DNA from: Deltaproteobacteria bacterium
Lineage (GTDB): Bacteria > UBA10199 > SPLOWO2-01-44-7
Reading direction: 5' to 3'
NCBI GenBank assembly: GCA_016203765.1
Contig: JACQMB010000145.1
Location: 72,964 to 136,963, forward strand
Length of the DNA stretch: 64,000 nt
Shown here: one piece after another, positions 42,894 through 59,600 of the stretch
Numbering within the stretch: the first letter of the stretch is position 1
Layout: every line of letters starts with the position of its first letter
Notes under the pieces: generated by a model
Told to the model about the DNA's origin: nothing
Database searches by the model: none
Seen by the model: only the letters and a program-made list of their open reading frames with translations
Position numbers and translations under genes: made by a program

Positions 42894-43791
42894 CGAACGA
42901 GGCCAGTTGGCGGTGCTTCTGGCCATGATCTTCCCGATGCTGATCATGCTCTTGGCCTTTTTCGTGAATTTGAGCCTGTTGATTCACAAAAAGGTAAAAC
43001 TGCAGACCGCCGTCGATGTCGGGGTCTATTCCGGCGCGGCCTCCCTGGCCTACGACCTCAATCACATCGCCCAGCTCAACCGCGAAATCAATGAACTCTA
43101 TCAGGGTGATCCGTTCGCCAACAAGGAATGCAAGTGGAATTCCCTCTCCCTGAAAGAGTATCTCGAAAAAGACAGCCTCCACATGTACTATATCGAAAGA
43201 AAATACATGCAGTATCTCAACGAGTTTCAGTCTTGTCTCGACACGATCGACGACATCAACAAGGAAGCGGTGGACAAGGCCCTCGCCTTCGCGCAAGAGG
43301 CCGCGCGGTGGACCTACTACAACGGGAAACCGCCCGCCGAGGACCCGGCCCGCTTCGAATTTGACACCCTCTATAAAAAGAGCGGCGACCCCATGATGGA
43401 ATACCGGTTTTACGTCACCACCGAATCGGGAGAAAAAATCGTCTGTAAAAAGTACGACAAGGTCACCTGCTTCGATTTTTGGCACGATGAGGGAAAGGAG
43501 ACGTACACCAAAGACGTCAACCTTCCCATCGCCAAGACCAGCCCGGTTTTTTTCGTGGGGCAGGCCTCCGCCAATGTCGGTTTCGGCAATCTCTGGTCGG
43601 AGAATTTCCGGGTGGCCGGCCGGCATTATGACGAGACCGGGAGCGGCCAAATCCGCCTCAAGACCTACGCCGCCGGCCAGCCGTTCGGCGGCTCCGTGGC
43701 CGGTTTTGACGACAAATATCGGGCGACGCTGGTCCCGATCGAAAACACCAAAGTCAAGGTGGGGGATTATCCGAATGGTTTTTGGCACTGA
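42847..43791 (+). CDS. TadG-like Flp-pilus assembly protein
   Basis: N-terminus RGQLAVLLAMIFPMLIMLLAFFVNLSLL...AVDVGVYSGAASLA fits the TadG N-terminal domain. Confidence 0.55.
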   Translation: MTTRSAMIPATQKNFNERGQLAVLLAMIFPMLIMLLAFFVNLSLLIHKKVKLQTAVDVGVYSGAASLAYDLNHIAQLNREINELYQGDPFANKECKWNSLSLKEYLEKDSLHMYYIERKYMQYLNEFQSCLDTIDDINKEAVDKALAFAQEAARWTYYNGKPPAEDPARFEFDTLYKKSGDPMMEYRFYVTTESGEKIVCKKYDKVTCFDFWHDEGKETYTKDVNLPIAKTSPVFFVGQASANVGFGNLWSENFRVAGRHYDETGSGQIRLKTYAAGQPFGGSVAGFDDKYRATLVPIENTKVKVGDYPNGFWH

Positions 43792-44104
43792 CAAAAAAGA
43801 AAATCAAAAGGGATTTGCCTCCTTTGAGTTTGCCTGGGCGGCCTTTTTTCTGACCCTTTTGATCATTGTCTTTTTTCGGTTTTTCGATATGTTGAACAAA
43901 ACCACCCGCGCCCTGATTGTGGCGCGCCATCGGGCCTTTGAAACGGTGGGCCGGCCGGCGGGGGGCGCGGTCAGGCAGGGCGAGATACCGAGCAGTGTCC
44001 CGCTCGATTGTGAGGATGGCCGTTGCCGGTTCAGCGCGTCGCCGGTGAGCCCGTTTTTTCCGGAGGGCGGTGAGCAGAACGTTTTTTTGGTTTTAAATCC
44101 CTGA
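43775..44104 (+). CDS. Second TadE-like protein
   Basis: GFASFEFAWAAFFLTLLIIVFF N-terminal pattern. The ORF-track upstream extension overlaps tadG in another frame. Confidence 0.45.
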   Translation: MVFGTDKKENQKGFASFEFAWAAFFLTLLIIVFFRFFDMLNKTTRALIVARHRAFETVGRPAGGAVRQGEIPSSVPLDCEDGRCRFSASPVSPFFPEGGEQNVFLVLNP

Positions 44105-44114: not shown

Positions 44115-44942
44115 ATGGACTTGAAAAAGAAATTGATCTTCTCCGGCGTGCTGGGAGTACTGGCCTTTATCGGCATTCTCTCCTACGTGCGCAACAAGGA
44201 GCAACATCTCCTCCAGCTTAGTGAAATGACCTATGTCCTGGCGGCCGCCAAGGATATTCTGGCCAACACCCAGATCGATGAGACGATGGTCGGCCGGATT
44301 CAGGTCCCCAGGAAATTTGTTCAACCGATGGCGTTAACCAGCCTGCGAGACGCGATCGGCCGGGTCGCCTTCGCCCCCATTCACGAAGGGGAGCAGATTT
44401 TGGGAACAAAACTGATCCAGCTGGGCTCGCAGACCGGCCTGGCCATGAAAATCCCGGTCGGGTTCCGGGCCGTCTCCATCGCGGTCAACGAGGTGACGGG
44501 GGTCGCCCACCTGATCCGCGCCGACGATTTTATCGATGTGTTGGGGAGTTTTGATTTCGGCGACCAGGCCCAGGCCAAAAAATATACCTACACCCTTTTT
44601 GAAAATATCCAGGTCCTGGCGGTGGAACAGAATATGGGCGAGGGTTTTACCACGGGCCTCCCCAAGGAGGAAAAGGGGGAGGGCGTGTTGAGCCGCCTGA
44701 TCGCCGAGCAGAAGGCGGGGGGGCAGGGGATGACGCTGACGCTGGCCATGTCCCCGGAGGATGCCCAGCGCCTCGTTCTGTCCCAGGAAACGGGATCGAT
44801 CTCCGTGGCCTTGCGCCCCCGCTTCGGTTCGGACAACATCTTGAAGCTGGAACCGGTCACGCCGTATGACCTGACCGGTTTGAAATCATTGATCCGGCAG
44901 TCCAAACAACCGACCTACATGGAATATAGAGGGGGGCGATAA
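44115..44942 (+). CDS. cpaB: Flp pilus assembly protein CpaB/RcpC
   Basis: N-terminal TM, a SAF-like segment, then a CpaB-type C-terminal region. Positioned before the secretin. Confidence 0.75.
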   Translation: MDLKKKLIFSGVLGVLAFIGILSYVRNKEQHLLQLSEMTYVLAAAKDILANTQIDETMVGRIQVPRKFVQPMALTSLRDAIGRVAFAPIHEGEQILGTKLIQLGSQTGLAMKIPVGFRAVSIAVNEVTGVAHLIRADDFIDVLGSFDFGDQAQAKKYTYTLFENIQVLAVEQNMGEGFTTGLPKEEKGEGVLSRLIAEQKAGGQGMTLTLAMSPEDAQRLVLSQETGSISVALRPRFGSDNILKLEPVTPYDLTGLKSLIRQSKQPTYMEYRGGR

Positions 44943-44944
44943 AC

Positions 44945-46357
44945 ATGAGCACAAGGAAAATCATCTGCACACCGCTGTTGATCCTGATGTTGTTGTTGCC
45001 GTGGAAGGGCCGGGGGCAGGTCGCCGACCAGCAGTTGGTGGTGGGCCGGGCCAAGACCCTGACCACCGCCTACGAAGTCGGCGACATCGCCATGAGCAAC
45101 GTGGAGATATGCTCTTTTGTGGTGAGGGAAAATCGGCGGGAGATTTATTTGAATCCGTTGACGGAGGGGAGTACCACCCTGACCATTTGGGACACGGAGG
45201 GTAAAAAAAGAGACAGCTCCCTGCTGACCGTGGTGGCCGTGGACGTCGATGCCGGCCTGAAAGCGGCCCAGGATTTCACCAGAAACATTCCGGGGGTGAG
45301 GGTCTATCTGGAGGGTTCGACGGTCGTCCTTGGCGGCGAGGTCCATACCCCGGCCCATCTCAAACAACTGGAGGGCTATGCCGAAACGCATCCCGAGGCC
45401 CGTTCGGAGGTGAAGCTCTCCAGCCAGGCCATGAACGTGATCGCCAAGCGGATCGAGGAGGCGATCAATACGCCGGGCATCCAGGTGCGGGCGGTGCGCG
45501 ACAAACTGATCATGGAGGGGTTGACCTACTCCGACGATATTTACAAAAAAATCGATACCATCGCCAAACTCTATGCCCCGGAAATCATCAACCTGGTGGA
45601 GGTCCGCGAGGCCAACCGCCGCCCCGGTTACGACAAAACCGTCCGCTTCGACATCTACTTTATGGAGGTCAAAAACTCGGCGCTCCGGGCGTTCGGAATC
45701 AACTGGGCCCCGGGGGCGGTCATCCAACAGCAGGCTGAAAAGGGTGGGGGGTCCGGCGGAGGCGGTTTCCTTGGGGGCGGGTTCAACGCCATGATCGGTT
45801 TTGTGATGAATCTGGTGCCGAAAATCCGGTGGATTCATCAGACCGGCCGCGGCAGGATTTTGGAAAAGCCCTCTTTTATCGTGAAGAGCGGCGAGCCGGT
45901 CAACTTCTTCAGCGGCACGCAGGTCCCCTATTACGGGGAACAGGGGGTTTCCTTCAAGGAGGTGGGGATTAAGGTGAATGCCGAGCCGATTGCCGCGGGC
46001 GACGAGATCGACTTGAAGGTCACGGTCGACGTCTCCACCCTCTCCTCGACGGTCGCCGAAGGGATCGACACCAACAACGTGACCACCTCGGTCTTCGTGA
46101 AGTCGGGCCAGGCGGTGGTGTTGGGGGGACTGGTCCGCAACGCCGATGTCAAGACCTATAACAAGGTCCCGAAGAATCTGGATACGACCTCGGCCATCTT
46201 CACCCTGTTTTTATCGAGGGATTTTCAGACCAATAAATCGCAGTTCTATGTCTTCCTCGTTCCCGAGGTGCTGGAACAGCCCCAGGCGGCCGAGATGAAG
46301 CTGAAACGCTGGCTTGAAATCAACAAGGAAATCGAGCTGTCGCGAAAATTTAAATGA
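44945..46357 (+). CDS. cpaC: Tad secretin CpaC/RcpA
   Basis: Signal peptide. C-terminal secretin blocks FFSGTQVPY, VFVKSGQAVVLGGLV and FVFLVPEVL. Confidence 0.8.
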   Translation: MSTRKIICTPLLILMLLLPWKGRGQVADQQLVVGRAKTLTTAYEVGDIAMSNVEICSFVVRENRREIYLNPLTEGSTTLTIWDTEGKKRDSSLLTVVAVDVDAGLKAAQDFTRNIPGVRVYLEGSTVVLGGEVHTPAHLKQLEGYAETHPEARSEVKLSSQAMNVIAKRIEEAINTPGIQVRAVRDKLIMEGLTYSDDIYKKIDTIAKLYAPEIINLVEVREANRRPGYDKTVRFDIYFMEVKNSALRAFGINWAPGAVIQQQAEKGGGSGGGGFLGGGFNAMIGFVMNLVPKIRWIHQTGRGRILEKPSFIVKSGEPVNFFSGTQVPYYGEQGVSFKEVGIKVNAEPIAAGDEIDLKVTVDVSTLSSTVAEGIDTNNVTTSVFVKSGQAVVLGGLVRNADVKTYNKVPKNLDTTSAIFTLFLSRDFQTNKSQFYVFLVPEVLEQPQAAEMKLKRWLEINKEIELSRKFK

Positions 46358-48498
46358 GTGCGGCGGTCATCAGCATTGTCGGCACCAAAGATGCGTGCGG
46401 GGCCTCGACCTTTGCCGCGAACCTGGGATTCCTCCTTCAAAAATTGTCCCACAAAAAAGTCCTCCTCTTTGATTACGATTTCAGCTATTGCGGCGACCTC
46501 CATCTTTCCCTCGACCAAAAGGAGTCCGCCTACGCCACCGATCTGATCGGCCTGGCCGGCAAGAAGGGGGCCCAAAAGATGCTGGAGGGTTTTATCCCCC
46601 GGCATCCGCGGGGCGTGCACCTCCTCCAGGCCTTCGATCCGCAGAAAAAGACGCACCGGTTTTCACCGGAGGATTTCGCCGGGGTCTTCTCCCTGCTGGC
46701 CGAGGCCTTCGATTATATTCTGGTGGATGGGGGGAGCAGTTGGACCCCCTATCATCTCCATCCCTTTTTGGGGTCCGGTCTTATCTTTTTGGTGGCCCAG
46801 CCGACGCGGGCTCTCCTCCGGGAGGCCTCGCATAAAACCGGCCGCCTCATGTCCGGTTTTATTCCGAAGAGCAAGCTGAACATCATTTTGAACAGGGTTG
46901 TGCAGACGGACGGGTTGAACACGCGGCAGATGGAGGAGCACTTTTCCGGATTAAACTGTTTTTATCTTCCGGACCGGCCCGGCAAAATGGAAGAGGCCTC
47001 CGGGGAACCGCTTTGCCTTCTGGACGTGCGCGACCCCTACACCCTGGGGATTGAGAAGATCGTCCGGGAGGCCCTCTTGAAGAAAAAACTGCCCTCCTTC
47101 CGTTTGGAGGAACATTCGGCGCCGGAATGGGGGGCCTTTGTCCCTTTCTGGGCGGCCTTCAACGGAGGGCCGACGGCCGCCGCGGCACCCGCGCGCGGCG
47201 CGGCTCAGGCCCCGCCGGTTGAAGAATGGGACCAATTGAAAGGCCAAATTTTAAAACAGTTGTTGAAGATGGTCGATTTTAAATCGATGGGGCTGGAACA
47301 GGCCAAGGATCAGAAAAACGAACAGGCCCTGCGGGAAAAAACCAGGGAGGCGATCCTGAAAATCCTCAACGCGATGGGGGAGGATGCCGTTGAACAAAGC
47401 AAAAAAAAACAACTGGTCGCGGAGGTTTTGGACGAGGCGCTCGGGCTGGGGCCGCTGGAGGTGCTCCTCGCCGATCCCAAACTCACCGAGATCATGATCA
47501 ACGGCAAGGACCATATCTACGTCGAAGAACGCGGAAAATTAAAGCGAACCCCGCTTCGTTTCAGTTCGGAGGATCAGCTCTCGGCGGTCATTGAAAGGAT
47601 CGTCGCCCCCATCGGCCGCCGGATCGATGAATCGACCCCCCTGGTCGACGCCCGGCTTCGGGACGGCTCCCGGGTGAATATCATCATTCCCCCCCTCTCT
47701 CTGGTCGGCCCGGTGGTGACCATCCGCCGTTTTTCCCAAACCCCGCTACAGGTGAGTGACCTGGTGGGCTTTGGCAGTCTCTCCGAGGGGATGGCCGAGT
47801 TTTTGCGCGCCGCCATTGAGGCGCGATTAAATATCGTGGTTTCCGGAGGAACCGGTTCGGGAAAAACAACCCTGCTCAACGTTTTGTCCTCTTTCATCGG
47901 GAACGATCAGCGGATTGTCACCATCGAGGACGCGGCCGAGTTGAGGCTCGGCCAGGAACACGTGATTTCTCTGGAATCGAGGCCCCCCAACATCGAGGGG
48001 AAGGGGGATATCCCGATCCGGACCCTGTTGAAGAACGCGCTCCGGATGCGGCCGGACCGGATCGTGATCGGGGAGTGCCGGGGAGGGGAGGCGCTGGATA
48101 TGCTCCAGGCGATGAACACCGGCCACGACGGCTCGCTCACCACCGTCCACGCCAACACGCCGCGCGATTGCGTCTCCCGTCTGGAAACCCTGGTGATGTA
48201 CGCGGGGGTGCAGCTCCCCTCCAAGGCCATCCGGGGCCAGATCGCCGCGGCCATCGACATGATTGTCCAGCTCAACCGGCTCTCCGACGGTAGCCGCAGG
48301 ATCACCAAGATCAGCGAGATCACCGGCATGGAGGGGGATGTGATCACCCTGCAGGATATCTTTGTCTTCAACCAGGAAAAAGTGGATGCCGACAAAAAGG
48401 TGATCGGCAAACACGCCCCGACCGGGGTGGTCCCCCGTTTTGTGGAAACGCTCCGCCAGCGGGGGATTGAGCTTTCCAGAAAGTATTTTCAGATATGA
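46354..48498 (+). CDS. Fused CpaE/TadZ-like (ParA/MinD-fold) plus CpaF/TadA secretion ATPase
   Basis: Residues 1-300 have the deviant ParA-like pattern GTKDACGAST...ILVDGG. Residues 330-714 carry the VirB11/TadA N-domain and Walker A VVSGGTGSGKTTLLN, plus Walker B and His box. Confidence 0.8.
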   Translation: MSAAVISIVGTKDACGASTFAANLGFLLQKLSHKKVLLFDYDFSYCGDLHLSLDQKESAYATDLIGLAGKKGAQKMLEGFIPRHPRGVHLLQAFDPQKKTHRFSPEDFAGVFSLLAEAFDYILVDGGSSWTPYHLHPFLGSGLIFLVAQPTRALLREASHKTGRLMSGFIPKSKLNIILNRVVQTDGLNTRQMEEHFSGLNCFYLPDRPGKMEEASGEPLCLLDVRDPYTLGIEKIVREALLKKKLPSFRLEEHSAPEWGAFVPFWAAFNGGPTAAAAPARGAAQAPPVEEWDQLKGQILKQLLKMVDFKSMGLEQAKDQKNEQALREKTREAILKILNAMGEDAVEQSKKKQLVAEVLDEALGLGPLEVLLADPKLTEIMINGKDHIYVEERGKLKRTPLRFSSEDQLSAVIERIVAPIGRRIDESTPLVDARLRDGSRVNIIIPPLSLVGPVVTIRRFSQTPLQVSDLVGFGSLSEGMAEFLRAAIEARLNIVVSGGTGSGKTTLLNVLSSFIGNDQRIVTIEDAAELRLGQEHVISLESRPPNIEGKGDIPIRTLLKNALRMRPDRIVIGECRGGEALDMLQAMNTGHDGSLTTVHANTPRDCVSRLETLVMYAGVQLPSKAIRGQIAAAIDMIVQLNRLSDGSRRITKISEITGMEGDVITLQDIFVFNQEKVDADKKVIGKHAPTGVVPRFVETLRQRGIELSRKYFQI

Positions 48499-49361
48499 GC
48501 ATCGGCGCGGTTTTGGTCAGTCTGTTTTCCGCGGGGTCGGTCGGCCTCCTCTTTTCTTTATGGCTCCAGGAGCTGGCCAAATTTTTGCGCCGGCAGATCG
48601 AGGCCGAAGAGGCCGCCTGCGAGGTTTGGCTCGCCAAATCGCTCATTGAATTGAAGGGGGCGGAAAAAAAGCTGTTTTGCCTTTGCGGGCCTCTGTTGGG
48701 CATTATCCTTTCCTTTTTGCTCCTCCCCGGCGTTTTTTGGAAGATCGCCGGGGCCTTGCTCTCCGCCCTCATCCTCAAGCGGCTGGGAAGGAGACTGGCC
48801 CGCCGTCTTTACCGGCGGCGGATCAAGGAGATTCAAAACGTTTTTGTCGACACCCTCGGGCTGGTGGGGAATGCCCTCCGCTCGGGACTCTCCCTTTATC
48901 AGGGTTTTGAGATGGCGGTCGAACAGATGCCCGGCCCGATCGCGCAGGAATTAAACCAGGTCCTGTCGGAGAACCGCCTCGGCCAGACCCTGGAGGCGGC
49001 CCTCGTCAACATGAAAAACCGGGTTCCCCTCAAAGAGGTGGCCAGCATGGTCGACTCGGTCTTGATCTTGAGGGAGACCGGAGGCAACCTGGTGGAGACC
49101 TTCGAGACGCTGATCAATACCCTGCGGGAAGAACAAAGGGTGCAGGACAAAATCAAAACATTGACCACCCAGGGCCTGGCCCAAGCGGTGGTGATTGTCC
49201 TCCTCCCGTTTGGTCTGGGAGGGGCCCTCTACTGGGTCTCCCCCGATTATATGTCGCCCTTGTGGAGCCACTGGCTGGGCTGGATCTGCATTTTGCTTAT
49301 CCTGTTTCTGCAGGGGCTGGGGGCTTTTTTGATGAAAAAAATTATTTCGATCAGGATTTAA
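48495..49361 (+). CDS. tadB: TadB-like inner-membrane platform protein (T2SS-F domain)
   Basis: Three TM segments with a T2SSF-like central domain, immediately after the ATPase. Confidence 0.7.
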   Translation: MSIGAVLVSLFSAGSVGLLFSLWLQELAKFLRRQIEAEEAACEVWLAKSLIELKGAEKKLFCLCGPLLGIILSFLLLPGVFWKIAGALLSALILKRLGRRLARRLYRRRIKEIQNVFVDTLGLVGNALRSGLSLYQGFEMAVEQMPGPIAQELNQVLSENRLGQTLEAALVNMKNRVPLKEVASMVDSVLILRETGGNLVETFETLINTLREEQRVQDKIKTLTTQGLAQAVVIVLLPFGLGGALYWVSPDYMSPLWSHWLGWICILLILFLQGLGAFLMKKIISIRI

Positions 49362-49363
49362 CG

Positions 49364-50218
49364 ATGCGAAAATTTTTAACCGTCCTTTTGATGTTAATCT
49401 CTTTTTCCCTCTTCGGCGGCGATGCGGAGGAGGTCCTGCTCCAGTTTCGTCCGACGCCGCGCCCCCTCAGTTATCTGGCCGCCTTTCATCTTCAGGAAAC
49501 CGACCTCATGAATATCGCCATGGAAACGGGGGAAAGCAAAATCCTGCAACGGGAGAAGAAACACTACATGGAAATTCGCAAGGATCTGACCCGCCGGGGC
49601 AGTCAGACCGATATCCCCTTTACGGAGACGGCGGTCCAGGCCTCCCTTTTGGACAACACCGCGAAGATTCATATCCTCAAGAACGAGTCGGGAGAGGGGC
49701 GGACCGCCAAGCCAAGGACGATGGTCACCAGCCAGTTTATCAACGGCCGGCTGGTCCAGCCCTTCGACCTCGCCGATTTGAGCGCGGCCGGTCTGCCGCT
49801 TTTGTTTTCCGATCAAAAGGTGAAACAGGGGAGCCTATGGGAACGCCCGATCGATTTCAAAAGGGAAAACCTCCCCCCGCTGGCCTTCAACACGAAATAC
49901 GAGGTCGTCGCGTTTCAACACCTGGCCGGGCACCCCGTGGCGGTAGTAACCTACACGTTCAAGGCCGCTTTGCAATCCACCCTGATCAGCCAGGATCCCC
50001 TCATCCAGCAAAAGGTGGCCGAATTAAAAAGGGAGAACGTGGAGAGCGTAGCGTATAAGGGAGAGGGAAGGTTCACGTTTGACTACCGCGAGGGTTTGTT
50101 GCTGACCCACAGCCTGACGATGAGCGAGAAAATCAGCAAATCCTATATCGAGGGGCGGCAAAGAAAATTGCAGGATATCGTTCGCATTTATGAATATTCG
50201 GAGGCGTTGATTCCGTAA
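49364..50218 (+). CDS. Secreted hypothetical protein
   Basis: Signal peptide MRKFLTVLLMLISFSLFGG. The ORF-track upstream part is read-through. Confidence 0.45.
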   Translation: MRKFLTVLLMLISFSLFGGDAEEVLLQFRPTPRPLSYLAAFHLQETDLMNIAMETGESKILQREKKHYMEIRKDLTRRGSQTDIPFTETAVQASLLDNTAKIHILKNESGEGRTAKPRTMVTSQFINGRLVQPFDLADLSAAGLPLLFSDQKVKQGSLWERPIDFKRENLPPLAFNTKYEVVAFQHLAGHPVAVVTYTFKAALQSTLISQDPLIQQKVAELKRENVESVAYKGEGRFTFDYREGLLLTHSLTMSEKISKSYIEGRQRKLQDIVRIYEYSEALIP

Positions 50219-50223
50219 CACCG

Positions 50224-51141
50224 ATGGCGCTGATTTTTTACAACCTGATCTTCTCGGCGGCGGCCGGCTTCTGGGGGCTGACCCTTTATGAAATGTCGCA
50301 ACAACGCCGCGCCCAGCGGCGGCTGACCCAGCGGGAGGAGGCGGTCGACAAAAAAAGCCTGGTCGACTACACGTTTCGCCCCATTTTTACTTCCTACAGC
50401 CATCTCTTCAAAAAAATCCACCTGGAATACTACCGCCGCTTCTTGAGGCGAAAATTCGTGCAGGGGGCGGTCGCGCGCAAATACAATGAGGAAATCTTCT
50501 GGGCCTTTCAAATTTTCATGGGGTTTTTGTTCGTCGCCCTCTACTACGGGCTGGCGGCCTATTGCCGTTTTCTTGGGTTGGCAATCCCCACCCCGTTCTG
50601 GCTGATGGTCATGGTTTTTGCCGCGGGGCTCGGTTATCCTCTCCTCTGGCTCCATTCCCTGACCAAAAAGAGGCTGGGGGAGATCGTGCGTCTTTTTCCG
50701 GAATTTGTCACCAACCTGGCCCTCGCGGTGGAGGCGGGAATGGATTTTTTCAGCGCCATGGGCCGTTACGCGAAAAATTTCGAACAGAATCCGCTGGGCC
50801 GCGAGCTCCAAACCGTCATCACCGAGGTGCAGTTGGGGGCCTCGCGCGAGGAGGCGCTCCGGCACCTGGCCGGGCGGCTTCAAATCAGGCCGGTCAGCGC
50901 CTTTGTCTCGGTGATGGTGCAGACGACCCGGCTGGGGACCTCCGTTGGCCAGGTCCTGCGGGTTCAGGCCGAACAACTGAGGCGGGAACGCTTCGAGGCG
51001 GCCGAACGGGCCGGGGTGAAGGCCTCGCAAAAGATTTTGTTTCCCCTGGTTTTTTTCATCATGCCCGCCGTCTTTTTGCTGATCTTCGGGCCCCTGATCG
51101 TCAAATTATTGACCGGCGGGATTGAAGCGTTGTTCCTGTAG
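50224..51141 (+). CDS. tadC: TadC-like inner-membrane platform protein (T2SS-F domain)
   Basis: TM topology and the T2SSF block LALAVEAGMDFFSAM...LRVQAEQL. Confidence 0.7.
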   Translation: MALIFYNLIFSAAAGFWGLTLYEMSQQRRAQRRLTQREEAVDKKSLVDYTFRPIFTSYSHLFKKIHLEYYRRFLRRKFVQGAVARKYNEEIFWAFQIFMGFLFVALYYGLAAYCRFLGLAIPTPFWLMVMVFAAGLGYPLLWLHSLTKKRLGEIVRLFPEFVTNLALAVEAGMDFFSAMGRYAKNFEQNPLGRELQTVITEVQLGASREEALRHLAGRLQIRPVSAFVSVMVQTTRLGTSVGQVLRVQAEQLRRERFEAAERAGVKASQKILFPLVFFIMPAVFLLIFGPLIVKLLTGGIEALFL

Positions 51142-51148
51142 GAGGAAA

Positions 51149-52306
51149 ATGGAAAAAGATTACGCGATGCTGTTGAGAGACAGAACGGAGGGCCTGATCA
51201 AAAAGGTCAGGGAGATGTCCTGGGTGCAGAAGGCCGTCCGGTATTTCCTGACCCTCGAGTGGTCGGAAAAGATTCTGTTCCTTTTCGGCGTGACGTTTTT
51301 TCTGCTGATGATGACTGGCCCCTACGCACTGCTCTACCGGCAGACGGGGGCGCTCCTTTCGGAGGCCCAACTGCGGGGATTGACCCTGGCCCGCTATTTG
51401 GCCGCCGGCAACCAGGCCGCCTTTACCCGGAAACAGGAGGTCCTCTATTCGGTGGAGGGGGTGATCCATGAACGGGGCGTGGAGGATGCCATGATCACCG
51501 ATCTGGAAGGGACCATCCTTTCCCCCGTGGAACGTTTTGGCCAAACTCTGCCTTTGACCCGGAAGGTTGAAAACCCCAACCAGTGCCAGCGTTTTAAAAA
51601 GGGTTTCGATCTTGAGTTTGTCTGCCCCCTGTTCCGGTGGCTTGAATCCTCGGACGGTTTTTCGAGGCAAACCATCGGCCTGGCCTATCTGAAATACAAT
51701 GCCCGGGAAAGCCTTGACCTTTTGGGTTCGCAAACTTTTCAGATGATCAAATACATATTTTTGTTCGCCTTTTTGATCGGGCTGACCGCCTACGCCTTTT
51801 TGGCTTTGACCCAAAAATCGCTCCTCGATTTTAAATTCGCCGTCCGGACGGCCGCGCGAAGCGGGAATCCGCTCGACATCCCCAGGCATTTTAAGGCCCT
51901 GCGCGAGATCGCCCTGGAAATCCAGGAACTCCAACAGCAAAAGGCCGCGGTGGGGCGCGCCGACTCCCCCGCCCCCGCCGACGCCTCCTCGCTCGCGGGA
52001 GAGATGATGGCATGGCTGGGGCCTCTTCTGAAAGAGCCGGTCCTGCTTTTGGACGAACGACAGCAGATTGTCCATTGCTCCAAGCCGCTCCGGGAAAAGT
52101 GGAAGGCCGCCCCGGAGGGCCACATCCTTCGCGCCCTAAAGGACTCCCCCTTCATGGAGCCCCTCATCGATTTTGTTGGGGCGTTGGGCGAAAATCCGGA
52201 GGAACCCCACACGCAAACCATCAAGGGCCTGGGATCCCTGCGGGGGGAATCCCTCAACCTCCAGGGAAAAAAATATTTTCTTATTCGAAAGGGGGGAACG
52301 GAATAA
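51149..52306 (+). CDS. Bitopic membrane protein with a periplasmic domain between two TM segments
   Basis: TM1 ILFLFGVTFFLLMMTGPYALLY and TM2 IFLFAFLIGLTAYAFLAL. No catalytic motif. Confidence 0.4.
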   Translation: MEKDYAMLLRDRTEGLIKKVREMSWVQKAVRYFLTLEWSEKILFLFGVTFFLLMMTGPYALLYRQTGALLSEAQLRGLTLARYLAAGNQAAFTRKQEVLYSVEGVIHERGVEDAMITDLEGTILSPVERFGQTLPLTRKVENPNQCQRFKKGFDLEFVCPLFRWLESSDGFSRQTIGLAYLKYNARESLDLLGSQTFQMIKYIFLFAFLIGLTAYAFLALTQKSLLDFKFAVRTAARSGNPLDIPRHFKALREIALEIQELQQQKAAVGRADSPAPADASSLAGEMMAWLGPLLKEPVLLLDERQQIVHCSKPLREKWKAAPEGHILRALKDSPFMEPLIDFVGALGENPEEPHTQTIKGLGSLRGESLNLQGKKYFLIRKGGTE

Positions 52307-52852
52307 ATGCTCAGCACGGAGGGTAAAAAATTATTTAAAAAGGCCCTGATCGGGATGGGCGGCTTTTTTTGCGTTCTCCTGATCCTGCGCCTTTTTATCT
52401 CCCCTAAAAAACCGTCGCCGGCCGCGGAGACTGGACGGGACGAGAGTTTTTTTCAGCTCTCTGAAATGGAAATCGAAAAACTGCCGGACACAAAGGAAGA
52501 TGCGGCAACCTACAGCGCGAATCAGAGACTGGTCCATCTCCTCCACTCCTATGCCTTCAACTATTTTCAATCCAAACGCCTGAAAAACGCGATCTCCCTT
52601 TGGGAAACCGCCGGCTACCTGGAGCCGGGCAACGCGGTGATCGGGCTTCGGCTGGAGCAGGCCCGGGAGGCCCTCAACTACCTGGTGCAGGAGAATATCG
52701 CCTTGGGGATGCGCGATTTTAAGTATCTCCGCTATGCCGAGGCGATCGAGCATTGGCGCCGGGCTTCCAATCTGGTCGCCGGCATCGATCCCGCGGCCCA
52801 TGAAAAAATCAAGCGGTGGATCACCAAGGCCGAAAGGAAACTGAGACAATGA
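52307..52852 (+). CDS. Small membrane-anchored TPR-like protein (TadD-like candidate)
   Basis: N-terminal TM followed by TPR-like helices. Confidence 0.35.
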   Translation: MLSTEGKKLFKKALIGMGGFFCVLLILRLFISPKKPSPAAETGRDESFFQLSEMEIEKLPDTKEDAATYSANQRLVHLLHSYAFNYFQSKRLKNAISLWETAGYLEPGNAVIGLRLEQAREALNYLVQENIALGMRDFKYLRYAEAIEHWRRASNLVAGIDPAAHEKIKRWITKAERKLRQ

Positions 52853-54210
52853 GTTTTACCTTTGATTATCAATTCCGGGGGAAAAGGGGGATTCTGGAGA
52901 TCGAAAAGGCCGGCGTTTTTTATTTGGACCTGTCGGAGGAGAGGCCGATCGCCTATTCCAACCCCGCCGCCGGCCCCCCTTTTCTGATTCTCTGCGGCCG
53001 GCAGGAGGTCTTTGCGGTATGGGAGGGGAAGGGACACCGCCTTGCCCCCGAACAACCCTTTTCAGCAGGGGGGCTGACCCTTTCCTGGCGGCCCGAGGAG
53101 ATTGCCTGGGGGAGGATACAACCCTATTTACAAACGGTCCTTCATTGGATACAGACCGAGAGAAAGAAGGCGCTGGGGTTGGGTTCGGCAGTACTCGTCC
53201 TGCTGGTGATCGGAGTGATTCTGGCGGGTTCCAAGGAGGGGAAATTGACGCAGGAAACCGTGGTCCAGGCCACCCAGGAGTTGAAAGGGAATGCCCTTTT
53301 TGCCGTGCGCCTTAAATTGTCTGAACAGGCTCTTGAAGAAAAAAATTATCCGTTGGCCGCGGAGTTGGCCGACAAGGTCCTCACAGCCTCGCCCGCGAAT
53401 CCCCAGGCCATGGCCCTGAAAGAAAAGGCGCTGGCCTCCTTGGAGGCCTCGCAGAAGGAATCCCAAATAGAGGTAAAAAAAGAAATCCGCTTTAAGGAAA
53501 TTTTAGACCAGGTTACCGCCCTGATGGCGGCCAAGGATTATCATGGCGCCCTCTTCCGGGTTCAGCAGGTCCTGGAGGCCGACCCGGGACATGCCGAGGC
53601 CTTCCGCATGCATGAGGCGATTCAAAAGGAACTGGCGAATCTGGAACAAAAAGAGATCCAAACCGTGGGCGCCGATGCCGAAAGTTTGGAACGAGCGGAG
53701 GAACTTTGGAAGAGCGGGAAGGGGGCCTTCGACGCCGAAAATTACGGGCGGGCCTGGCGGAATTTTATCGACGCCCTGGCTTTGCTTAAAGAAAGAAACC
53801 TGCATCCCCCGTTCCGCGTTGATCTCAATGAGCTTTTGACGCAAACCGAGGCCGCCCTGGCCGACCAGGCCCGGCCCATGGTGGATCAGGCCCGTGAATT
53901 AAGAAACCTGGGCCAGAACAGCCAGGGTCAAAAGAGGGCCGAATATTTTTCGGAGGCCCTGACCCGCTACTACGCGGCCGAAAAAATTTATCCCGAATTT
54001 GAAGGACTCCGCAATGAAATCGGAATGGTCATCGAACGCCTCAACAAGGCGGTGGAGCCCTTCTTTGTGGAGGCCCAGACCATGAAGGATCTGGAGGGGT
54101 GCTGTCCCTCCCATCCCCATTTCAAAAAGGTCATGGGTCTTGCCAAATACGAATCGGTTCCGTTATACAAACAAGCCAAGGAGATGCTGGAGATATGTCC
54201 GTGCCGGTAA
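52849..54210 (+). CDS. TPR-repeat protein with a central TM segment
   Basis: TM LGLGSAVLVLLVIGVILAGS followed by TPR-like repeats. Confidence 0.4.
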   Translation: MSFTFDYQFRGKRGILEIEKAGVFYLDLSEERPIAYSNPAAGPPFLILCGRQEVFAVWEGKGHRLAPEQPFSAGGLTLSWRPEEIAWGRIQPYLQTVLHWIQTERKKALGLGSAVLVLLVIGVILAGSKEGKLTQETVVQATQELKGNALFAVRLKLSEQALEEKNYPLAAELADKVLTASPANPQAMALKEKALASLEASQKESQIEVKKEIRFKEILDQVTALMAAKDYHGALFRVQQVLEADPGHAEAFRMHEAIQKELANLEQKEIQTVGADAESLERAEELWKSGKGAFDAENYGRAWRNFIDALALLKERNLHPPFRVDLNELLTQTEAALADQARPMVDQARELRNLGQNSQGQKRAEYFSEALTRYYAAEKIYPEFEGLRNEIGMVIERLNKAVEPFFVEAQTMKDLEGCCPSHPHFKKVMGLAKYESVPLYKQAKEMLEICPCR

Positions 54211-55757
54211 AAAAAATTTTGATTCTCCTCTGCGCGGGTCTTTTTCCCTGGAGCGGTCCCTGGGCCAAGCCGGCCGTCGAGCCGATCTATATCCCGCTCG
54301 ATCATGTCCGCGTCCCCCATCCGGGCGCCGGCTGGAATTACCGGGTCGGCTCCGACCAACTGCGCATCGAATTCAAGGAAGAGGCCTCCCTCCGCAACGG
54401 GGCCTACCCGAGCGTTGTCCTCCTCTCGCGCCGGATCGTGGATGCCTCCCCCTACGCCGCGGCCTGGCAGCGCGCGGAACTCAAGGGTCTCCCGAAACGC
54501 TACCAGGTTGAAGCCGGCGACGCGGCGGCGGCGGATGCCTTTCAGATCAACTATTCCTTCACCCAAAACCTGATGCGCGTGGAGGGGGCCCGGTTCTACA
54601 AGCCGCAGGGCCACTGGCTTTACCTGTGGGAGTGTCAGCGGGAACAGGGCGGGGGCGTTGATTTGAAAAAATGGTGCCGGGACCTGTTCGCGAACATCCA
54701 ATGGTCGGAGGATATCGCGATCGCGTCGCCCGAACAGGTGGACGATTTGGATGCACTGGTCGCGAAGATGTCCTTTGCCCCCCCTCAATTGCAAAAACAG
54801 GAAACGGATCTGATCGCGGGCCTGCAAAAAACCCCGCTGACCTTCAACGACCTGATGGCCTACGGGGCCTTTCTGATGGTCCGCTCGCTCCTCTATCCTC
54901 CCCCCGAAGGACAGCAGGGGGACCTGATCGAGAATTTCAAAAAGATGTCGCTGATTTTCAGAAAAGATCCGCGCTACCGGACGGTGAGCGAATGGTTTGC
55001 GGTGCACGCCGAGGTCCTGGGAGGCCTGTTTAATTTGAAAAAGGCCAAAGAGGTGGCGCAGTCGAACGAGCGGCCTCCCTTCTGGCTGTTGAGCTTGTGG
55101 GTGGAGCCCCTCTCCCCGGGGATCGCCGCGAGCATGATCGCCCGCGAGGATTTTGACAAGGGCCTGGAACACTACGTGCAGGGGACGCTCCTTCATAAGA
55201 CCGGTCATGGGGACGAGGCCCTCACTCCTTTGAACAAGTCGGCCGGCCAATTTGGGGCGCTGGCTTGGGAACAGATGGCGCGCATCCATCTTGAAAAACA
55301 AGACCGCGATAAGGCGAAAATTTACGTTGAAAAAATCCTGAAAAAAAGTCCGGACCATGTCGGCGCGAAACTCCTTCTGGCCCGCATTTTGGAGGCGACC
55401 GAGGAGCCCCCCCAACTGGAGGAGGCCCAGAAGATCTACGCTGACTTGACCGCAAAGAAAGACCTCTCCGGGGACGAAAAACTGAATATCTTTTTGCAAA
55501 AGGCCAAAAACAGCATCCATCCCGAAATCCAGACGGAGTATTATGAAAAGGTTTTGGAGATTGACCCGAATCATCTGGACGCCATCTACGCGCTGGGCCG
55601 CCTCTATCTTTTGGAATATAATGACAAAAAGAAGGGGGTCCAATATTTTGAAAAATTCATTGCGAAGGCCCCCAAGGAAGACGAACGCGTGCAGGAATTG
55701 ACCGCCATGGTGCGCGATCTCCGCCATGAGATCTATTCGAGTCAAATTCCGGAATAG
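54195..55757 (+). CDS. Secreted TPR-repeat protein
   Basis: Signal peptide MSVPVKKILILLCAGLFPWSGPWA and C-terminal TPR repeats. Confidence 0.45.
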   Translation: MSVPVKKILILLCAGLFPWSGPWAKPAVEPIYIPLDHVRVPHPGAGWNYRVGSDQLRIEFKEEASLRNGAYPSVVLLSRRIVDASPYAAAWQRAELKGLPKRYQVEAGDAAAADAFQINYSFTQNLMRVEGARFYKPQGHWLYLWECQREQGGGVDLKKWCRDLFANIQWSEDIAIASPEQVDDLDALVAKMSFAPPQLQKQETDLIAGLQKTPLTFNDLMAYGAFLMVRSLLYPPPEGQQGDLIENFKKMSLIFRKDPRYRTVSEWFAVHAEVLGGLFNLKKAKEVAQSNERPPFWLLSLWVEPLSPGIAASMIAREDFDKGLEHYVQGTLLHKTGHGDEALTPLNKSAGQFGALAWEQMARIHLEKQDRDKAKIYVEKILKKSPDHVGAKLLLARILEATEEPPQLEEAQKIYADLTAKKDLSGDEKLNIFLQKAKNSIHPEIQTEYYEKVLEIDPNHLDAIYALGRLYLLEYNDKKKGVQYFEKFIAKAPKEDERVQELTAMVRDLRHEIYSSQIPE

Positions 55758-55761
55758 GACG

Positions 55762-56109
55762 ATGGGGGTTGCCCTGGCCGAGGGGCGGCTGGCCAGGCTT
55801 TTGGGAATGAGTTTTCGCGGCGCGTGGAAGAAAGAAGGGATGCTGTTTGTTTTTAAAAAACAGGGCCGCTATCCTTTTTGGATGTGGGGGATGCGCCTGC
55901 CGATCGATCTGGTCTGGTTAAAGAAACGGACGGTGGTCGGTTTTGAGGAAAATCTCCAGCCCCCGGCCTCCCGTTGGCACCTGCTCTTTCCCTTTCTGCT
56001 GAGGCGCTACCGTCCGCCGGAGGCCGTGGACGGCGTGCTGGAAGTTCCGGCCGGGTTTTGCCGGCAGAACCGGCTGAAAAGGGGGGAGGTACTCGATGCG
56101 CAAAATTAA
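55762..56109 (+). CDS. DUF192 (COG1430) family protein
   Basis: GMLFVF...YPFWMWGMRLPIDLVWL matches the DUF192 core. Confidence 0.5.
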   Translation: MGVALAEGRLARLLGMSFRGAWKKEGMLFVFKKQGRYPFWMWGMRLPIDLVWLKKRTVVGFEENLQPPASRWHLLFPFLLRRYRPPEAVDGVLEVPAGFCRQNRLKRGEVLDAQN

Positions 56110-56662
56110 CAACAGACAAGGACAAGCCGCCGTGGGTTATGCCCTGGCCCTGGCCGTCGTGGCGGTCGGCATGGGTGTGGTTTTAAACAGCCCCGAGCTG
56201 AGGCAGGGGATTGCCGAATTTTACACCAACGCCGCCACCCGCGTTATTCATGGCGGAAAATTCGGCGAATCCGATTTGACCGCCGCCAAGGATGAAACAT
56301 GGGGATCAGCGCCTTCGGATGAAACGGCCGGAACGCCGACTGAAAGCGGAACTCCCTCCGGCGGGGACGGCACGGGTGCCGGAGATGGTTCCTCAGGCGG
56401 TTCTTCGGATTCCGGGCAGACCACCCAGACAGGGGGCGGCGGCTTGGGGACCGGGGGGGTGAATACCCCGGGAACGGTTCCGGGCGAGACGACTGCTTCC
56501 ACGGGTCCCTCGACGCAACCCACCGCGCCAACGGGCTCCGTCCCGCCGGAACCCGGCGCGCCGAAAGGTCCCTTTGCCGATCAAAATATGTCTTCCGCCC
56601 CGGTTGAAAATCCGCAGGAGCCGGCGCAATGCGAAGCGGCGGCGGATAGCGCCGGAATATGA
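56096..56662 (+). CDS. Pilin-like protein with a non-canonical Flp-type N-terminus and a Gly/Ser/Thr-rich tail
   Basis: NNRQGQAAVGYALALAVVAVG resembles the Flp G/xxxxEY motif with E replaced by G. The C-terminal ~120 aa is G/S/T/P-rich. Stop overlaps the RHS-2 start. Confidence 0.45.
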   Translation: MRKINNRQGQAAVGYALALAVVAVGMGVVLNSPELRQGIAEFYTNAATRVIHGGKFGESDLTAAKDETWGSAPSDETAGTPTESGTPSGGDGTGAGDGSSGGSSDSGQTTQTGGGGLGTGGVNTPGTVPGETTASTGPSTQPTAPTGSVPPEPGAPKGPFADQNMSSAPVENPQEPAQCEAAADSAGI

Positions 56663-59600
56663 TGAAAAAACAAGTGAGCGCAAAACTTGTTTCATCGGGG
56701 GCCGTGATTTTAGGCTTGGCATTTTTTGTTTTTGTTTCCGGTCCGTTCGTCTCATCCATCCAAAGCCAGGATATCGATCAAAGCATTCAATCCCTGCGGT
56801 CGTTTGACTACCAGAAGGCGACCGACCTGGGAAAACTGGAGGACTACGCCAAGAAAGAGGCGCGGAAGTTCATGGGCCAGGCGGAGGTCAAGGAGAAGAT
56901 GGAGAGTTGGGTGAATGAGGCCAAGGAGGCTTGGACGGACGCGCACGGCAAGATGTATCAATTGCCGGCTCGGGGGGCCTCTGTTCCCTGGGAGTCGAGG
57001 CCGGAATACCGCGACTATTTGAAAAAAGAATTGACCAACCAGATGCAGGTGAAATTTCCGGGCATGATGGATCAGTTCATGAAGAACAACGTCTTGCAAG
57101 GGGCGCAGGTCGCGGCGGAGGAGGCGGCGAAGGTGGAGAAGATGATCGGGGAGGTGACCGACCAGACCCTGAAGAACGTGGAGGGGATCGTGGGGGGAGC
57201 GATCGACCATTGGGGAGAGACCATACAAAGCGGCGGGGGGATGTTGACGGACAAGTTATTGGAGCCCGCCGCCTTTTTGGGCGAGATGCAGGAGAAGCTG
57301 GCCGGCAAGATGGGGGAGGCGACCAAGCTGGGGATGAAGGAATTTATCGACAAAGAGATGATCGGTCTGCTGGGGGAGAATTTTGAGCAGAAGCTGACCG
57401 ATCTGACCCAAGGGGCGGCGGAGACGTTGGAGGGGATCAAAGACAAGCTGGCGGACATCAAGCACATCGATTTAACCTCGATCGAGCAAAACCTGCAGGG
57501 GATATTGGACGCCTCCGGTCTTCCGAATCCTTTTAATTTATCGGCCGGCGATTATTTGGGACATCAGTTTCACAAGCTGAAGGGACTGCCCCCGGCGACC
57601 CTTCCGGACATCGAGATTCCCTCCCCGGCGATGGCGGGGATTTGGGCCTCTTCGGCGGCGAAGCATTTTGCCAAGGCCTTCGTGAAGTTTGATGAGCTCC
57701 GTGCCGGGATCAACCTGATCAAGCATTTGATTTGGCAGATGGAGAAGAAGCCTCGGTCGTTCATGATGTTTGGGGGTGATTTTGCGGGGCGCGGTATCTT
57801 TGGCGCGCACGGGGCGGCGGGGCTGACGCCGGAGCAGAAGGCCAAGCTGGAGGCGCTGATCGCGGAGGCGGAGGGCCTGCCGGAAGACATGGATCCGACG
57901 AAGATGAAGGAGAAGCTGGAGGGATTCAGGGATATTTTGGGCGAGTTCAAGGTGGAGATGGACAAGCAGATTTTGGCGATGGGGAAGCCCAACGAGGGTT
58001 ACGATCAACCCGATTTGGAGGGTGAGGAGAAGGAAAAAGATTGCGAGAAGGACCCGGAGCGGGAGGAGTGTCAATACGAGGAGGTAAAAGTAGCCAGCAA
58101 GGAGGATCAGACCGGGGCGACGGAGGAATCCCCTGAGGCCGACAGCGATTCGCCTTTGGACCCTGTTATTTTGTACAGCGGGGAGTACGCGTTAAAAGCG
58201 ACTGATTTGAAATTAAGGGGCCGGGGCCTCGATTTTGAACTGACCCGCCACTACCGCAACCAATGGGAGCGGATGGGGCCGCTGGGATACAACTGGACGC
58301 ACAACTACGATGAGAAACTGATTCTCGATTCCCAAAAGCGGGACATCGTGCATCAATCGCCGGAAGGCCAGCGTTATTGGTATCGCTGGGATGAGAAAAA
58401 ACAGCGCTTTGATTCTCCGCGCGGCTTTTTCACGAAGCTGACCCCAACCGAAGGGGGATTTGTTCTAAAGCAATCCGAAGGGCTTAACTATTATTTCAAC
58501 GGCGAAGGGCGGATGACCAGGATTGAAGACGCTCATCAGAACGCCCTGCGATTTGAATACGGCCTCGCGGGCGAGACAATGGTTTTGGTGCGCGTGATAG
58601 ACACGCTGGGGCGCGCGGTGGAGTACCGTTACAATGATGAGGGTTTGATTGCCTCGGTGGTGGATCCCTTTGGAAGGGAAGTGGTTTATACCCATGACGC
58701 TCAAAAAGACCTTGTGTCTGTCCGCTCGCCGGTGAGCGATCAATATCCGCAGGGGAAGACAACCCGCTACGCTTACAGCGGCGGGCTGTTGGAGCCGAGG
58801 CTCAATCACAATCTCAACATGATCATGGATCCGAAGGGGCAGATTTATTTAAAAAACGTCTACGGGGCCGAGGGATTGGAAAAGGACAAGATCACGGCGC
58901 AGTTGTTCGGGGGAAAAGAGAGCCTTCAGATGCGGGTGGAATACGAGGCGTTAAAGGCCAGCAAGCCGACGGTCAACACGGCGTTAAGCCGGACGACGGT
59001 CTGGGACCGCAAGGGGGTTCAACATAGCTATGAGCACAACGCCTGGGGCCTGCGTTTGAGTGAGCGGGCGGGAGAAAATCCGGCCGAGCAGTTTGAATAT
59101 AACCAGGACGGGCTTTTAACCAAACACGTTTATCCCGGCGGCAAGGAGGAGATTTTTACCTACGAAGGGAATCATCTCAAAGAATATCAACTGAAAGGCG
59201 AGGATGGAAAATCCCTGCTGGGCCGTTATGGCTATGACAAGCAATGGAATAAGGTTGCCTTTGAAGAAAGGATCTCCGGCACCGAGGTTCGCCGGAAAGA
59301 ATACGCGTACAATGACGCGGGGCTTTTGAGCGAGGCGCGTGAGGGGGGTGTCACCACCCGGTATGAGTACGATCCCTACGGCCGGATTGTTAAAAAGATC
59401 GAAGGGGAAAAGACGCGGACCTACGCCTATGACAAGGCCAACCCCATTGTTATTACGGACAGCACGGAGGGGGGAAGCCGCAGTATCACCATCGGTTACG
59501 ATCTTTACGGCAACATTCAGGCGGTGACCGATCCTGCGGGGAACCGGACCCGCTATTGGCTGAATGCCAACAACCTGGTGGTGCAGAAGGAAGATGCCTT

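Follow-up and report, generated by a model that had tools for sequence, protein, structure and literature searches.

A Glu5-less Flp-like protein, a candidate minor pilin, encoded with DUF192 at the end of an RHS-associated Tad-like operon

What is the role of a protein that begins like a Flp prepilin, has glycine in place of the near-invariant glutamate of the processing motif, and ends in a long low-complexity tail? This question is raised by an open reading frame (ORF) at 56096..56662 on the forward strand of a 64,000-nucleotide stretch of DNA from a Deltaproteobacteria bacterium (assembly GCA_016203765.1, contig JACQMB010000145.1, positions 72,964 to 136,963), referred to here as the window. 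The ORF encodes 188 amino acids (aa) and closes a Tad (type IVc) pilus operon, with the Tad locus upstream of it at 42.2–55.8 kb and a gene for the RHS protein RHS-2 directly after it. In GenBank, the product is registered as a hypothetical protein (MBI4125686.1 and MBI4224008.1) in two metagenome-assembled genomes, both named “Deltaproteobacteria bacterium.” A sequence-only reading of the window had given exactly these coordinates, had quoted as the N-terminus a string, RQGQAAVGYALALAVVAVG, that corresponds to residues 7–25, and had suggested a minor or tip pilin, a flexible linker-adhesin, or a carrier that couples RHS-2 to the pilus. Of these options, the minor pilin is best supported by the Flp homology and the Tad locus described below. 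We consider, with a probability of roughly 55%, that the protein is a non-canonical minor Flp (type IVc, Tad) pilin and a core, operon-terminal part of a distinctive RHS-associated Tad-like system.

The ORF has an ATG start with GGAGG 6 nucleotides (nt) 5′ of it, shares its first 14 nt with the end of the DUF192 gene before it, and at its stop overlaps the start of RHS-2 by 4 nt (ATGA). When it was compared with its only close homologue, a 51%-identical protein in the related locus L006 (related loci are given L numbers), the ratio of nonsynonymous to synonymous substitution rates (dN/dS) was 0.20 in the N-terminal domain (dS 0.95) and 0.43 in the tail. Based on the ribosome-binding site (RBS) and these ratios, we regard the ORF as a real gene under purifying selection. 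An antisense ORF at 56244..56759 (171 aa) was rejected as a shadow, because dN/dS favors the gene on the forward strand. The GenBank accession numbers of the Flp of the locus and of the target protein are 15 apart, which equals the 15 genes counted from one to the other, and there was no excess around the target gene of promoter- or terminator-like sites that would separate it from DUF192 or RHS-2.

The N-terminus of the protein, MRKINNRQG/QAAVGYALALAVVAVGMGVVL, consists of a basic leader with Gly at position −1, four residues (QAAV), Gly at +5, Tyr at +6, and then a 20-residue hydrophobic stretch. The register of the Flp motif G/xxxxEY, which the sequence-only reading had recognized with Glu replaced by Gly, is therefore kept. 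The conserved pilin-like domain comprises a hydrophobic first helix (alpha1N), a second helix with FYTNAATRVI, and a third, short one that closes with TWGS. AlphaFold2 (AF2), run with a 12-sequence family alignment, placed these helices at residues 8–30 (block-mean predicted local distance difference test score, pLDDT, 83–89), 33–51, and 58–69, and modeled residues 70–188 without secondary structure (pLDDT < 50 for residues 83–148). Thus, the N-terminal 70 aa are predicted to be all-alpha, yet the whole protein is 188 aa long and no globular domain is predicted in it. The tail (residues 72–188, 117 aa) is composed of 21% G, 15% T, 14% P, 12% S, and 11% A, with D/E at 13 versus K/R at 1, and the sole Cys of the protein lies in it, in the motif E-P-A-Q-C-E-A, 10 residues before the C-terminus. 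The description of the remaining ~120 aa as low-complexity fits this tail, but not residues 26–71, which belong to the conserved helical domain. No tandem repeat was found in the DNA under the tail, so an origin of the tail by tandem repetition was rejected. In the family described below, an S/G-P that is conserved in most members comes after the hydrophobic segment; in the target protein it is Ser-Pro. A Pro at +1 is known to block signal peptidase I. A Sec signal peptide at the N-terminus was rejected on the grounds of the 20-residue hydrophobic region and the Ser-Pro after it.

The relationship to Flp pilins was found at several levels. In BLASTP, the protein and the canonical Flp of its own locus (42203..42406, G/QTATEY) were 35% identical over 40 aa, with their N-termini in register. 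An hhalign comparison of the target family, with no canonical Flp included, against the 32-member canonical Flp family of this Tad subtype gave a probability of 96.7% (E = 4.5e-10), and the alignment spans 43 columns in which the leader, Gly, Gln, position +5, and Tyr are all in register. Controls in which the Flp alignment was reversed, or its columns were shuffled 20 times, gave ≤ 2.8% and scores ≤ 15.7, versus 51.2 for the real alignment; therefore, the match exceeds what mere hydrophobic composition would give. In a local profile search of 3,853 six-frame ORFs, the best outside matches of each profile were mostly members of the other family, and canonical Flps were the next-best matches of the target-family profile, with E values of 1e-8 to 4e-6. 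The sole profile match of the target family in the PDB was the Caulobacter Tad pilin PilA (8u1k), which aligned in register but not significantly (E = 1.4). In that Flp family, GQTATEYMLI is invariant, with Glu at +5 in all 32 sequences, and the G/Q junction is common to the target family, canonical Flp (32/32), and the TadE and TadG genes of the locus. The pilin-like identity proposed earlier is thus borne out by profile–profile and reciprocal profile evidence, with Gly−1 and Tyr+6 kept and Glu+5 absent. As a separate observation, in L017 (9831..9992) and L018 (9658..9897), a second small Flp-like ORF lies just upstream of Flp in compact operons.

When 1.84 billion representative proteins were searched exhaustively by profile, with the N-terminal 76 residues of the target protein and of its L006 homologue as the query, a family of 12 proteins was recovered at E < 1e-3. 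A word-indexed homology search with the protein recovered only itself and one relative, and scanning GTDB genomes and JGI metagenomes with degenerate patterns from the target alignment found nothing. The family shares the signature leader-G/Q-[TAS]-[AST]-V-[G/D/A]-Y-x-L…S-P-x-x-R-Q…L-Y-T-D-A-A-T-R-V-I, of which YTDAATRVI is the motif of the second helix. Across an 11-member alignment, Gly−1 (G9), Gln+1 (Q10), V13 (+4), Y15 (+6), L17 (+8), Y43, and R49 are invariant, and position +5 is G in eight members, D in two, A in one, and Glu in none. Five members are Flp-sized (59–78 aa) and tail-less, and six have low-complexity tails, the five complete ones being 156–192 aa long. In the complete long members, the length of the tail (100–123 aa) and its acidity are kept while its sequence has diverged, and E-[PS]-x-x-C-[EQD] occurs in 5/5 of them, with a single Cys 4–10 residues from the end. 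The tail is absent from five of the 11 other family proteins, so the core function cannot depend on it, and by this comparison it is a lineage-specific add-on. The idea of a one-off oddity of the source genome does not hold, since the protein is part of a conserved family in which DUF192, not RHS, is the constant partner.

This partnership was seen when the genomic context was retrieved for eight family members. A DUF192 gene lies directly upstream of the Flp-like gene in seven of the eight distinct loci with an upstream flank (the window, L006, L008, L009, L010, L011, and L012–14). The two genes usually overlap, by up to 56 nt, and are at most 4 nt apart; the one locus that departs from the pairing, L007, is a 942-nt contig. 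The order of the operon is as in the window in L001, L006, L009, and L012–L018. In L006, L009, L012, and L013, it runs TadB, a protein of ~290 aa, TadC, proteins of ~390, ~180, and ~457 aa, a TPR protein of ~510 aa, DUF192, and the Flp-like protein, and in L012 a secretin and a TadZ–TadA fusion are also visible upstream. The Flp-like gene is the last of ~15 genes in the window, L009, and L012–14, and in L009, L010, and L012–14, where it ends the operon, convergent unrelated genes follow. The compact operon of L017 also ends in DUF192, where the locus is cut, and a HicA/HTH toxin–antitoxin pair (19237..19870) is inserted there just before DUF192. The Tad operon of L006 carries another insertion (4572..7004), which lies between the genes for the 181-aa and 455-aa proteins and consists of a gene for a 542-aa protein with a PT-TG pre-toxin domain and of two small ORFs, 151 and 116 aa long, that may be immunity genes.

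By profile, the gene upstream of the target clearly belongs to DUF192 (PF02643/COG1430; PDB 3pjy and 3m7a). Solved DUF192 members are labeled “hypothetical signal peptide protein” (3pjy) or “uncharacterized,” whereas none of the operon-linked DUF192 proteins has a signal peptide, and for this reason they are predicted to be cytoplasmic. They also differ from the solved ones in their tie to the Flp-like gene and in an insert, PPxxxWxLxFPFxLxRY, which is common to all of them except the L017 protein; Asp61 and Glu106 are invariant in the operon-linked proteins of the window, L006, L008–L013, and L017. In L006 (9782..10804), DUF192 and the Flp-like gene are in frame and form one continuous ORF (…RLERGCHF-MFKIKHNKGQAAVGY…). 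This ORF, seen in one Logan contig only, is either a natural DUF192–prepilin fusion or the product of a 1-nt assembly error; a fusion would leave the leader with DUF192 on its cytoplasmic side, in keeping with the topology of an N-in prepilin. A tblastn search of DUF192 against plasmids gave no match, and nothing relevant on DUF192 with pili was found in the searchable literature.

From the sequences, we infer a path of membrane insertion, cleavage, filament entry, and tail display, with coupling to RHS as a further putative step. The protein would be co-transcribed with, and translationally coupled to, the cytoplasmic DUF192 protein, and would insert in the inner membrane N-in/C-out via its 20-residue hydrophobic helix. 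A prepilin peptidase encoded outside the window would then cut the 9-residue basic leader after Gly9, a site predicted because the G/Q junction is common to Flp, TadE, and TadG of the locus, and the mature protein would start with QAAVGY. Lacking Glu5 but keeping Tyr6 and the hydrophobic Flp motif, both of which take part in filament contacts in the Caulobacter Tad pilus structure, the mature protein would join the Tad filament as a low-copy subunit. In that structure, Glu5 points outward on the surface, and Tyr6 and Thr2 make contacts (PMC10710030), so a Glu5-less protein that keeps Tyr6 could still pack into a filament. Its role there would be that of an initiating, capping, or adapter subunit rather than of the shaft, and the acidic disordered tail of ~117 residues with its Cys motif may serve as a flexible external tether that could form a disulfide with a partner.

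Comparison with known systems places the protein close to, but outside, the canonical groups. It shares with Flp/Fap pilins (PF04964; Caulobacter PilA, 8u1k; Aggregatibacter Flp1) a short basic leader ending in Gly, a hydrophobic alpha1N helix, Tyr+6, a fold predicted to be all-alpha in its N-terminal part and without a globular domain, a location in a tad locus, and profile–profile homology. It differs from them in that it has Gly at +5 (D or A in its relatives) for the invariant Glu5 of G/XXXXEY, no Flp_Fap HMM match, its own YTDAATRVI motif, a length of 188 versus 50–80 aa with a 117-aa disordered tail, and a gene that comes last, after DUF192, whereas Flp comes first. TadE and TadF pseudopilins are also distinct, as the protein matches neither TadE (PF07811) nor Tad (PF13400) and in AF2 consists of helices and then disorder, with no beta-rich C-terminal domain. 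It is best filed, on these comparisons, as a Glu5-less, DUF192-linked Flp-like subfamily that descends from Flp pilins and probably works like them.

A functional analogy, and only that, is offered by the Kil Tad-like system of Myxococcus, in which KilK and KilO are second, low-abundance Flp “adapter” pilins that couple TadE/F/G-type tips to the shaft (PMC12075869). They are encoded by accessory Flp-like genes beside the major pilin, are all-helical, have a leader and a cleavage motif, and are proposed to couple the tip complex to the shaft and to prime polymerization; the Kil system and that of the target protein are both tied to bacterial antagonism. The first chain of the Kil supplementary models starts with Gln, and the G/XXXXE motif is given for the major pilin KilP (PMC12075869). 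The differences are that the accessible portions of the Kil papers mention no DUF192 partner or long tail (PMC12075869; PMC8460266) and that the ATPase is fused to TadZ in our locus versus FHA in Kil (PMC8460266). A second comparison is with caps. T4 (type 4) filaments are assembled from the tip toward the base, with a Glu5-less subunit such as GspK/PulK or the PilK/PilX type as the cap (PMC10191384). Like these caps, which have no subunit above them to neutralize, the target protein has a pilin N-terminus without Glu5, but the caps have large globular domains and HIJK-type complexes, and the target protein has neither. Moreover, in the solved Tad pilus the salt bridge between subunits is not made by Glu5 (PMC10710030), and the argument for a cap may therefore not transfer.

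Several observations weigh against the assignment as a minor pilin. The comparison with Flp/Fap HMMs that the sequence-only reading had proposed as a check went against it: neither the full protein nor its first 76 aa matched Flp_Fap (PF04964), Class_IIIsignal, or TadE at E ≤ 10, whereas the Flp of the locus matched Flp_Fap at E = 1e-4. The NCBIfam pilin models likewise gave no match, nor did Pfam and NCBIfam scans as a whole give a meaningful one. In our judgment, which rests on the profile comparisons above, the protein is a divergent Flp pilin paralogue that the curated HMMs miss. The earlier statement that the window has no TadV-type prepilin peptidase was confirmed by a Pfam scan of about 45 window ORFs, which contained no Peptidase_A24, and none occurs in any related locus seen. 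The non-uniform +5 position (D in two members and A in one) means that the logic of a cap without Glu5 cannot fit every member. The TadG-like minor pilin of the locus is already Glu5-less and is the expected cap, a role that it fits better than the target protein does; a second cap would be redundant unless there are alternative tips, and there are no HIJK-type genes. The constant pairing with a cytoplasmic DUF192 protein is, to our knowledge, unprecedented among pilins, and it may signal a non-filament role. Finally, the family is tiny, with 12 proteins known only from metagenomic contigs.

Some of these points fit the alternative that survives best, which we consider possible but on balance unlikely: the protein may be an unprocessed bitopic inner-membrane protein whose pilin-derived anchor sits at the base of the Tad machine with cytoplasmic DUF192, where it would regulate, scaffold, or gate assembly, and the ~110-residue periplasmic tether of the long-tailed members would reach toward the secretin or outer membrane. 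Such an anchor would account for the pairing, often with overlap, with a gene for a DUF192 protein without a signal peptide, and for the single ORF of L006, in which DUF192 is on the cytoplasmic side of the helix. It would also agree with the absence of Glu5 and of a prepilin peptidase from the loci seen, and the conservation of tail length (100–123 aa) despite sequence divergence fits a spacer or ruler. If the leader stayed uncut, however, the invariant Gly−1 and Gln+1, which are the same as in the bona fide pilins of the locus, would be left unexplained; Tyr6 and the Flp motif are conserved, and about half of the family has no tail to serve as a tether.

A second alternative concerns the RHS proteins. 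RHS-2 and its paralogue RHS-1, which is divergent and upstream of the Tad operon, share an N-terminal domain (NTD), and proteins sharing the RHS-2 NTD flank this Tad subtype in five independent loci (the window, L011, L016, L017, and L018) among the neighbors of Flp homologues, through which alone the distribution of the NTD was sampled. An NTD-type RHS gene lies upstream of Flp in four of the five loci with that region visible; the exception, L015, shows only 3 kb. The NTD proteins have N-termini like Sec-type signal peptides, clearly so in L018 only if translation starts upstream of the called start, and their C-terminal toxin domains differ, those of two relatives being assigned by Pfam to YkuD (a weak match) and Tlde1. 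AF2, run with a 2-sequence alignment, modeled the NTD as all-helical but poorly (pLDDT 51.5). Degenerate patterns from the NTD alignment found nothing in GTDB genomes or JGI metagenomes, and no paper linking Tad systems to RHS toxins was found in the searchable literature. The L006 PT-TG toxin and a 666-aa gene product in L008 were considered as further carriers of the NTD and rejected, as neither showed similarity.

Together, these observations look like a conserved Tad–RHS gene neighborhood, as judged from gene order and NTD similarity. The link between pilus and RHS suggested by the sequence-only reading accordingly stands for the whole Tad-type system and is not supported for the target gene itself. 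The more specific proposal, in which the NTD of RHS-2 is tethered by the tail or Cys motif of a tip subunit and the toxin is thereby presented or delivered on the Tad pilus, is improbable in our view. The ATGA overlap with RHS-2 implies co-expression, the short member in L011 is also followed by an NTD gene (30% over 351 aa, E = 8e-47), NTD-type RHS genes border this Tad subtype also in L016, L017, and L018, and the Sec-type signal peptides of these proteins fit loading in the periplasm. Nevertheless, an NTD/RHS-type gene follows the Flp-like gene in only two of the eight distinct loci with a downstream flank visible, there being none in L006, L008, L009, L010, L012, and L013. Nor does the tail track RHS adjacency, since L011 is tail-less with an NTD gene and L006 and L008 are tailed without one, and no Cys is conserved across six aligned RHS NTDs, which leaves a conserved disulfide partner there unsupported. 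A carrier coupling RHS-2 to the pilus is thus not supported by the gene-level data, and RHS-2, although probably co-expressed with the target protein, is not its obligate partner.

The last alternative, that of a generic low-complexity protein, secreted by Sec or exposed on the cell surface, with no relation to pili and only a chance likeness to Flp, would suit the lack of a Pfam or NCBIfam pilin HMM match and the low complexity of ~60% of the protein, but it is very improbable given the profile–profile homology to Flp that survives shuffled controls, the conserved position inside the Tad operon, the tail-less Flp-sized members, and the 20-residue hydrophobic stretch followed by Ser-Pro, which is unfavorable for signal peptidase I.

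The features of the locus and of its relatives are collected in Table 1. The minor-pilin block (42435..44104) matched Pfam Tad (PF13400) at E = 1e-6, above the cut-off, and TadE (PF07811) at E = 1e-4, at the cut-off. At the position of the TadZ–TadA fusion, L012 and L015–L018 have proteins of 584–732 aa with T2SSE and, except in L016, also CbiA/AAA_31; on this evidence, the fusion seems characteristic of this Tad subtype. A secreted or lipoprotein-like protein of 237–321 aa without a Pfam family precedes Flp in the window (41385..42164), L015 (2197..2910), and L016 (8997..9962), and these proteins share, by eye and unscored, the motif …LLHFE…PNYA.QLN.EIP…GY.AW.HPDFP.GD….

Table 1. Features in the window and in related loci (positions refer to the window unless a locus is named)
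Feature	Position	Strand	Basis or remarks
Target gene, Flp-like prepilin paralogue, 188 aa	56096..56662	+	RBS, dN/dS, family of 12, hhalign to Flp 96.7%
Predicted class III (prepilin) leader M1–G9, basic, Gly−1 at end	56096..56122	+	G9 and Q10 invariant; cleavage predicted
All-alpha pilin-like domain Q10–S71	56123..56308	+	AF2 helices, invariant residues, 8u1k profile match
Disordered acidic G/T/P/S/A tail, aa 72–188, lineage-specific	56309..56659	+	Composition, pLDDT, family comparison
C-terminal motif E-P-A-Q-C-E-A	56618..56638	+	Conserved in alignment of complete long-tailed members
DUF192 gene, no signal peptide	55726..56109	+	PF02643, E 5.5e-19, 68.5 bits vs cut-off 27
RHS-2, 2116 aa	56659..63009	+	Sec-type signal peptide, novel NTD, DUF6531, RHS repeats, unassigned C-terminal toxin region
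RHS-2 NTD, ~480 aa, helical	56659..58098	+	No Pfam family
RHS-1, paralogue of RHS-2	34835..41080	-	NTD 61% identical, different C-terminus; divergent, upstream of Tad operon
RHS-1 NTD	39581..41080	-	
Secreted or lipoprotein-like 259-aa protein	41385..42164	+	No Pfam family; precedes Flp
Canonical Flp, major-pilin candidate, G/QTATEY	42203..42406	+	Below gathering cut-offs for Flp_Fap (E 1e-4) and Class_IIIsignal (E 0.009); 32 homologues
TadE-like, G/QTVTEF	42435..42893	+	Minor-pilin block
TadG-like, G/QLAVLL, without Glu5	42847..43791	+	PF13400; minor-pilin block
TadF-like, G/FASFEF	43775..44104	+	Minor-pilin block
Tad machinery and accessory genes	44115..55757	+	Pfam; order kept in other loci
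RcpC/CpaB	44115	+	Pfam
Secretin	44945	+	Pfam
TadZ–TadA fusion, 714 aa	46354..48498	+	N-terminal TadZ/ParA-like (CbiA) domain fused to Tad ATPase
TadB	48495	+	Pfam
Secreted 284-aa protein	49364	+	
TadC	50224	+	Pfam
385-aa membrane protein	51149	+	No Pfam family
181-aa protein	52307	+	No Pfam family
453-aa protein	52849	+	No Pfam family
520-aa TPR protein	54195	+	Pfam
NTD gene of L011	L011, 1652..2719		Directly after tail-less family member; 30% over 351 aa to RHS-2 NTD, E 8e-47
RHS of L016, 2170 aa	L016, 2349..8861	-	Divergent, upstream of Flp; 37% over 369 aa to RHS-2 NTD, E 2e-65
RHS of L017, 2080 aa	L017, 1745..7987		Weak YkuD match; directly upstream, same strand; 23% over 349 aa to RHS-2 NTD, E 5e-10
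RHS of L018, 1974 aa	L018, 3073..8997		Tlde1 domain; directly upstream, same strand; 22% over 359 aa to RHS-2 NTD, E 4e-10

The remainder of the window contains other gene clusters. Downstream of RHS-1, a low-GC block (31600..34830; 41–46% vs about 55% elsewhere) contains small ORFs without a Pfam match, several of them with signal peptides, which are probably RHS-1 immunity genes or orphan cassettes. On the reverse strand, 23388..31452 encodes a bacterial alpha-2-macroglobulin (A2M; 1914 aa) and then a PBP1C-type penicillin-binding protein (679 aa), which we take to be the classic A2M–PBP1C periplasmic defence pair. A large sugar/glycoconjugate cluster at 3782..19514 includes genes for a PIG-L deacetylase, a sugar transferase, family 2 glycosyltransferases (GT2s), methyltransferases, nucleotidyl transferases, a 4,6-dehydratase, UDP-glucose dehydrogenase, myo-inositol-1-phosphate synthase, and a HAD phosphatase, together with two large ORFs without a Pfam family (7010..9016 and 9013..9951).

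The family described here would be a new, unnamed, and conserved branch of Flp-type proteins that lacks the “invariant” Glu5, and it bears on the function of Glu5 in Tad pili. For DUF192, a widespread family with solved structures whose function is not known, the locus may provide a first concrete context, in which it is coupled, and possibly fused, to a pilin-like protein that ends a Tad operon. The co-occurrence of Tad and RHS genes, the dedicated NTD, and the peptidoglycan-targeting YkuD and Tlde1 domains in two relatives make a sequence-defined candidate pilus–toxin pairing. Whether killing machines of the Tad-like kind secrete a toxin, and if so which, is a question that the Kil papers do not settle (PMC8460266). 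As a tentative idea, which is more likely to be wrong than right, the Tad-type operon may be a previously undescribed two-step export or contact-delivery machine for RHS polymorphic toxins, marked by the TadZ–TadA fusion, the extra TPR and membrane proteins, and, at its end, DUF192 paired with the Glu5-less Flp. The shared Sec-exported NTD would be the “trafficking” domain by which the toxins are recognized, and the DUF192/Flp-like pair would prime or tip a filament that presents the toxin or pushes it through the secretin. If this were true, the Tad-type operon would be the RHS counterpart of Kil, or a use of the Tad pilus that resembles a type II secretion system (T2SS).

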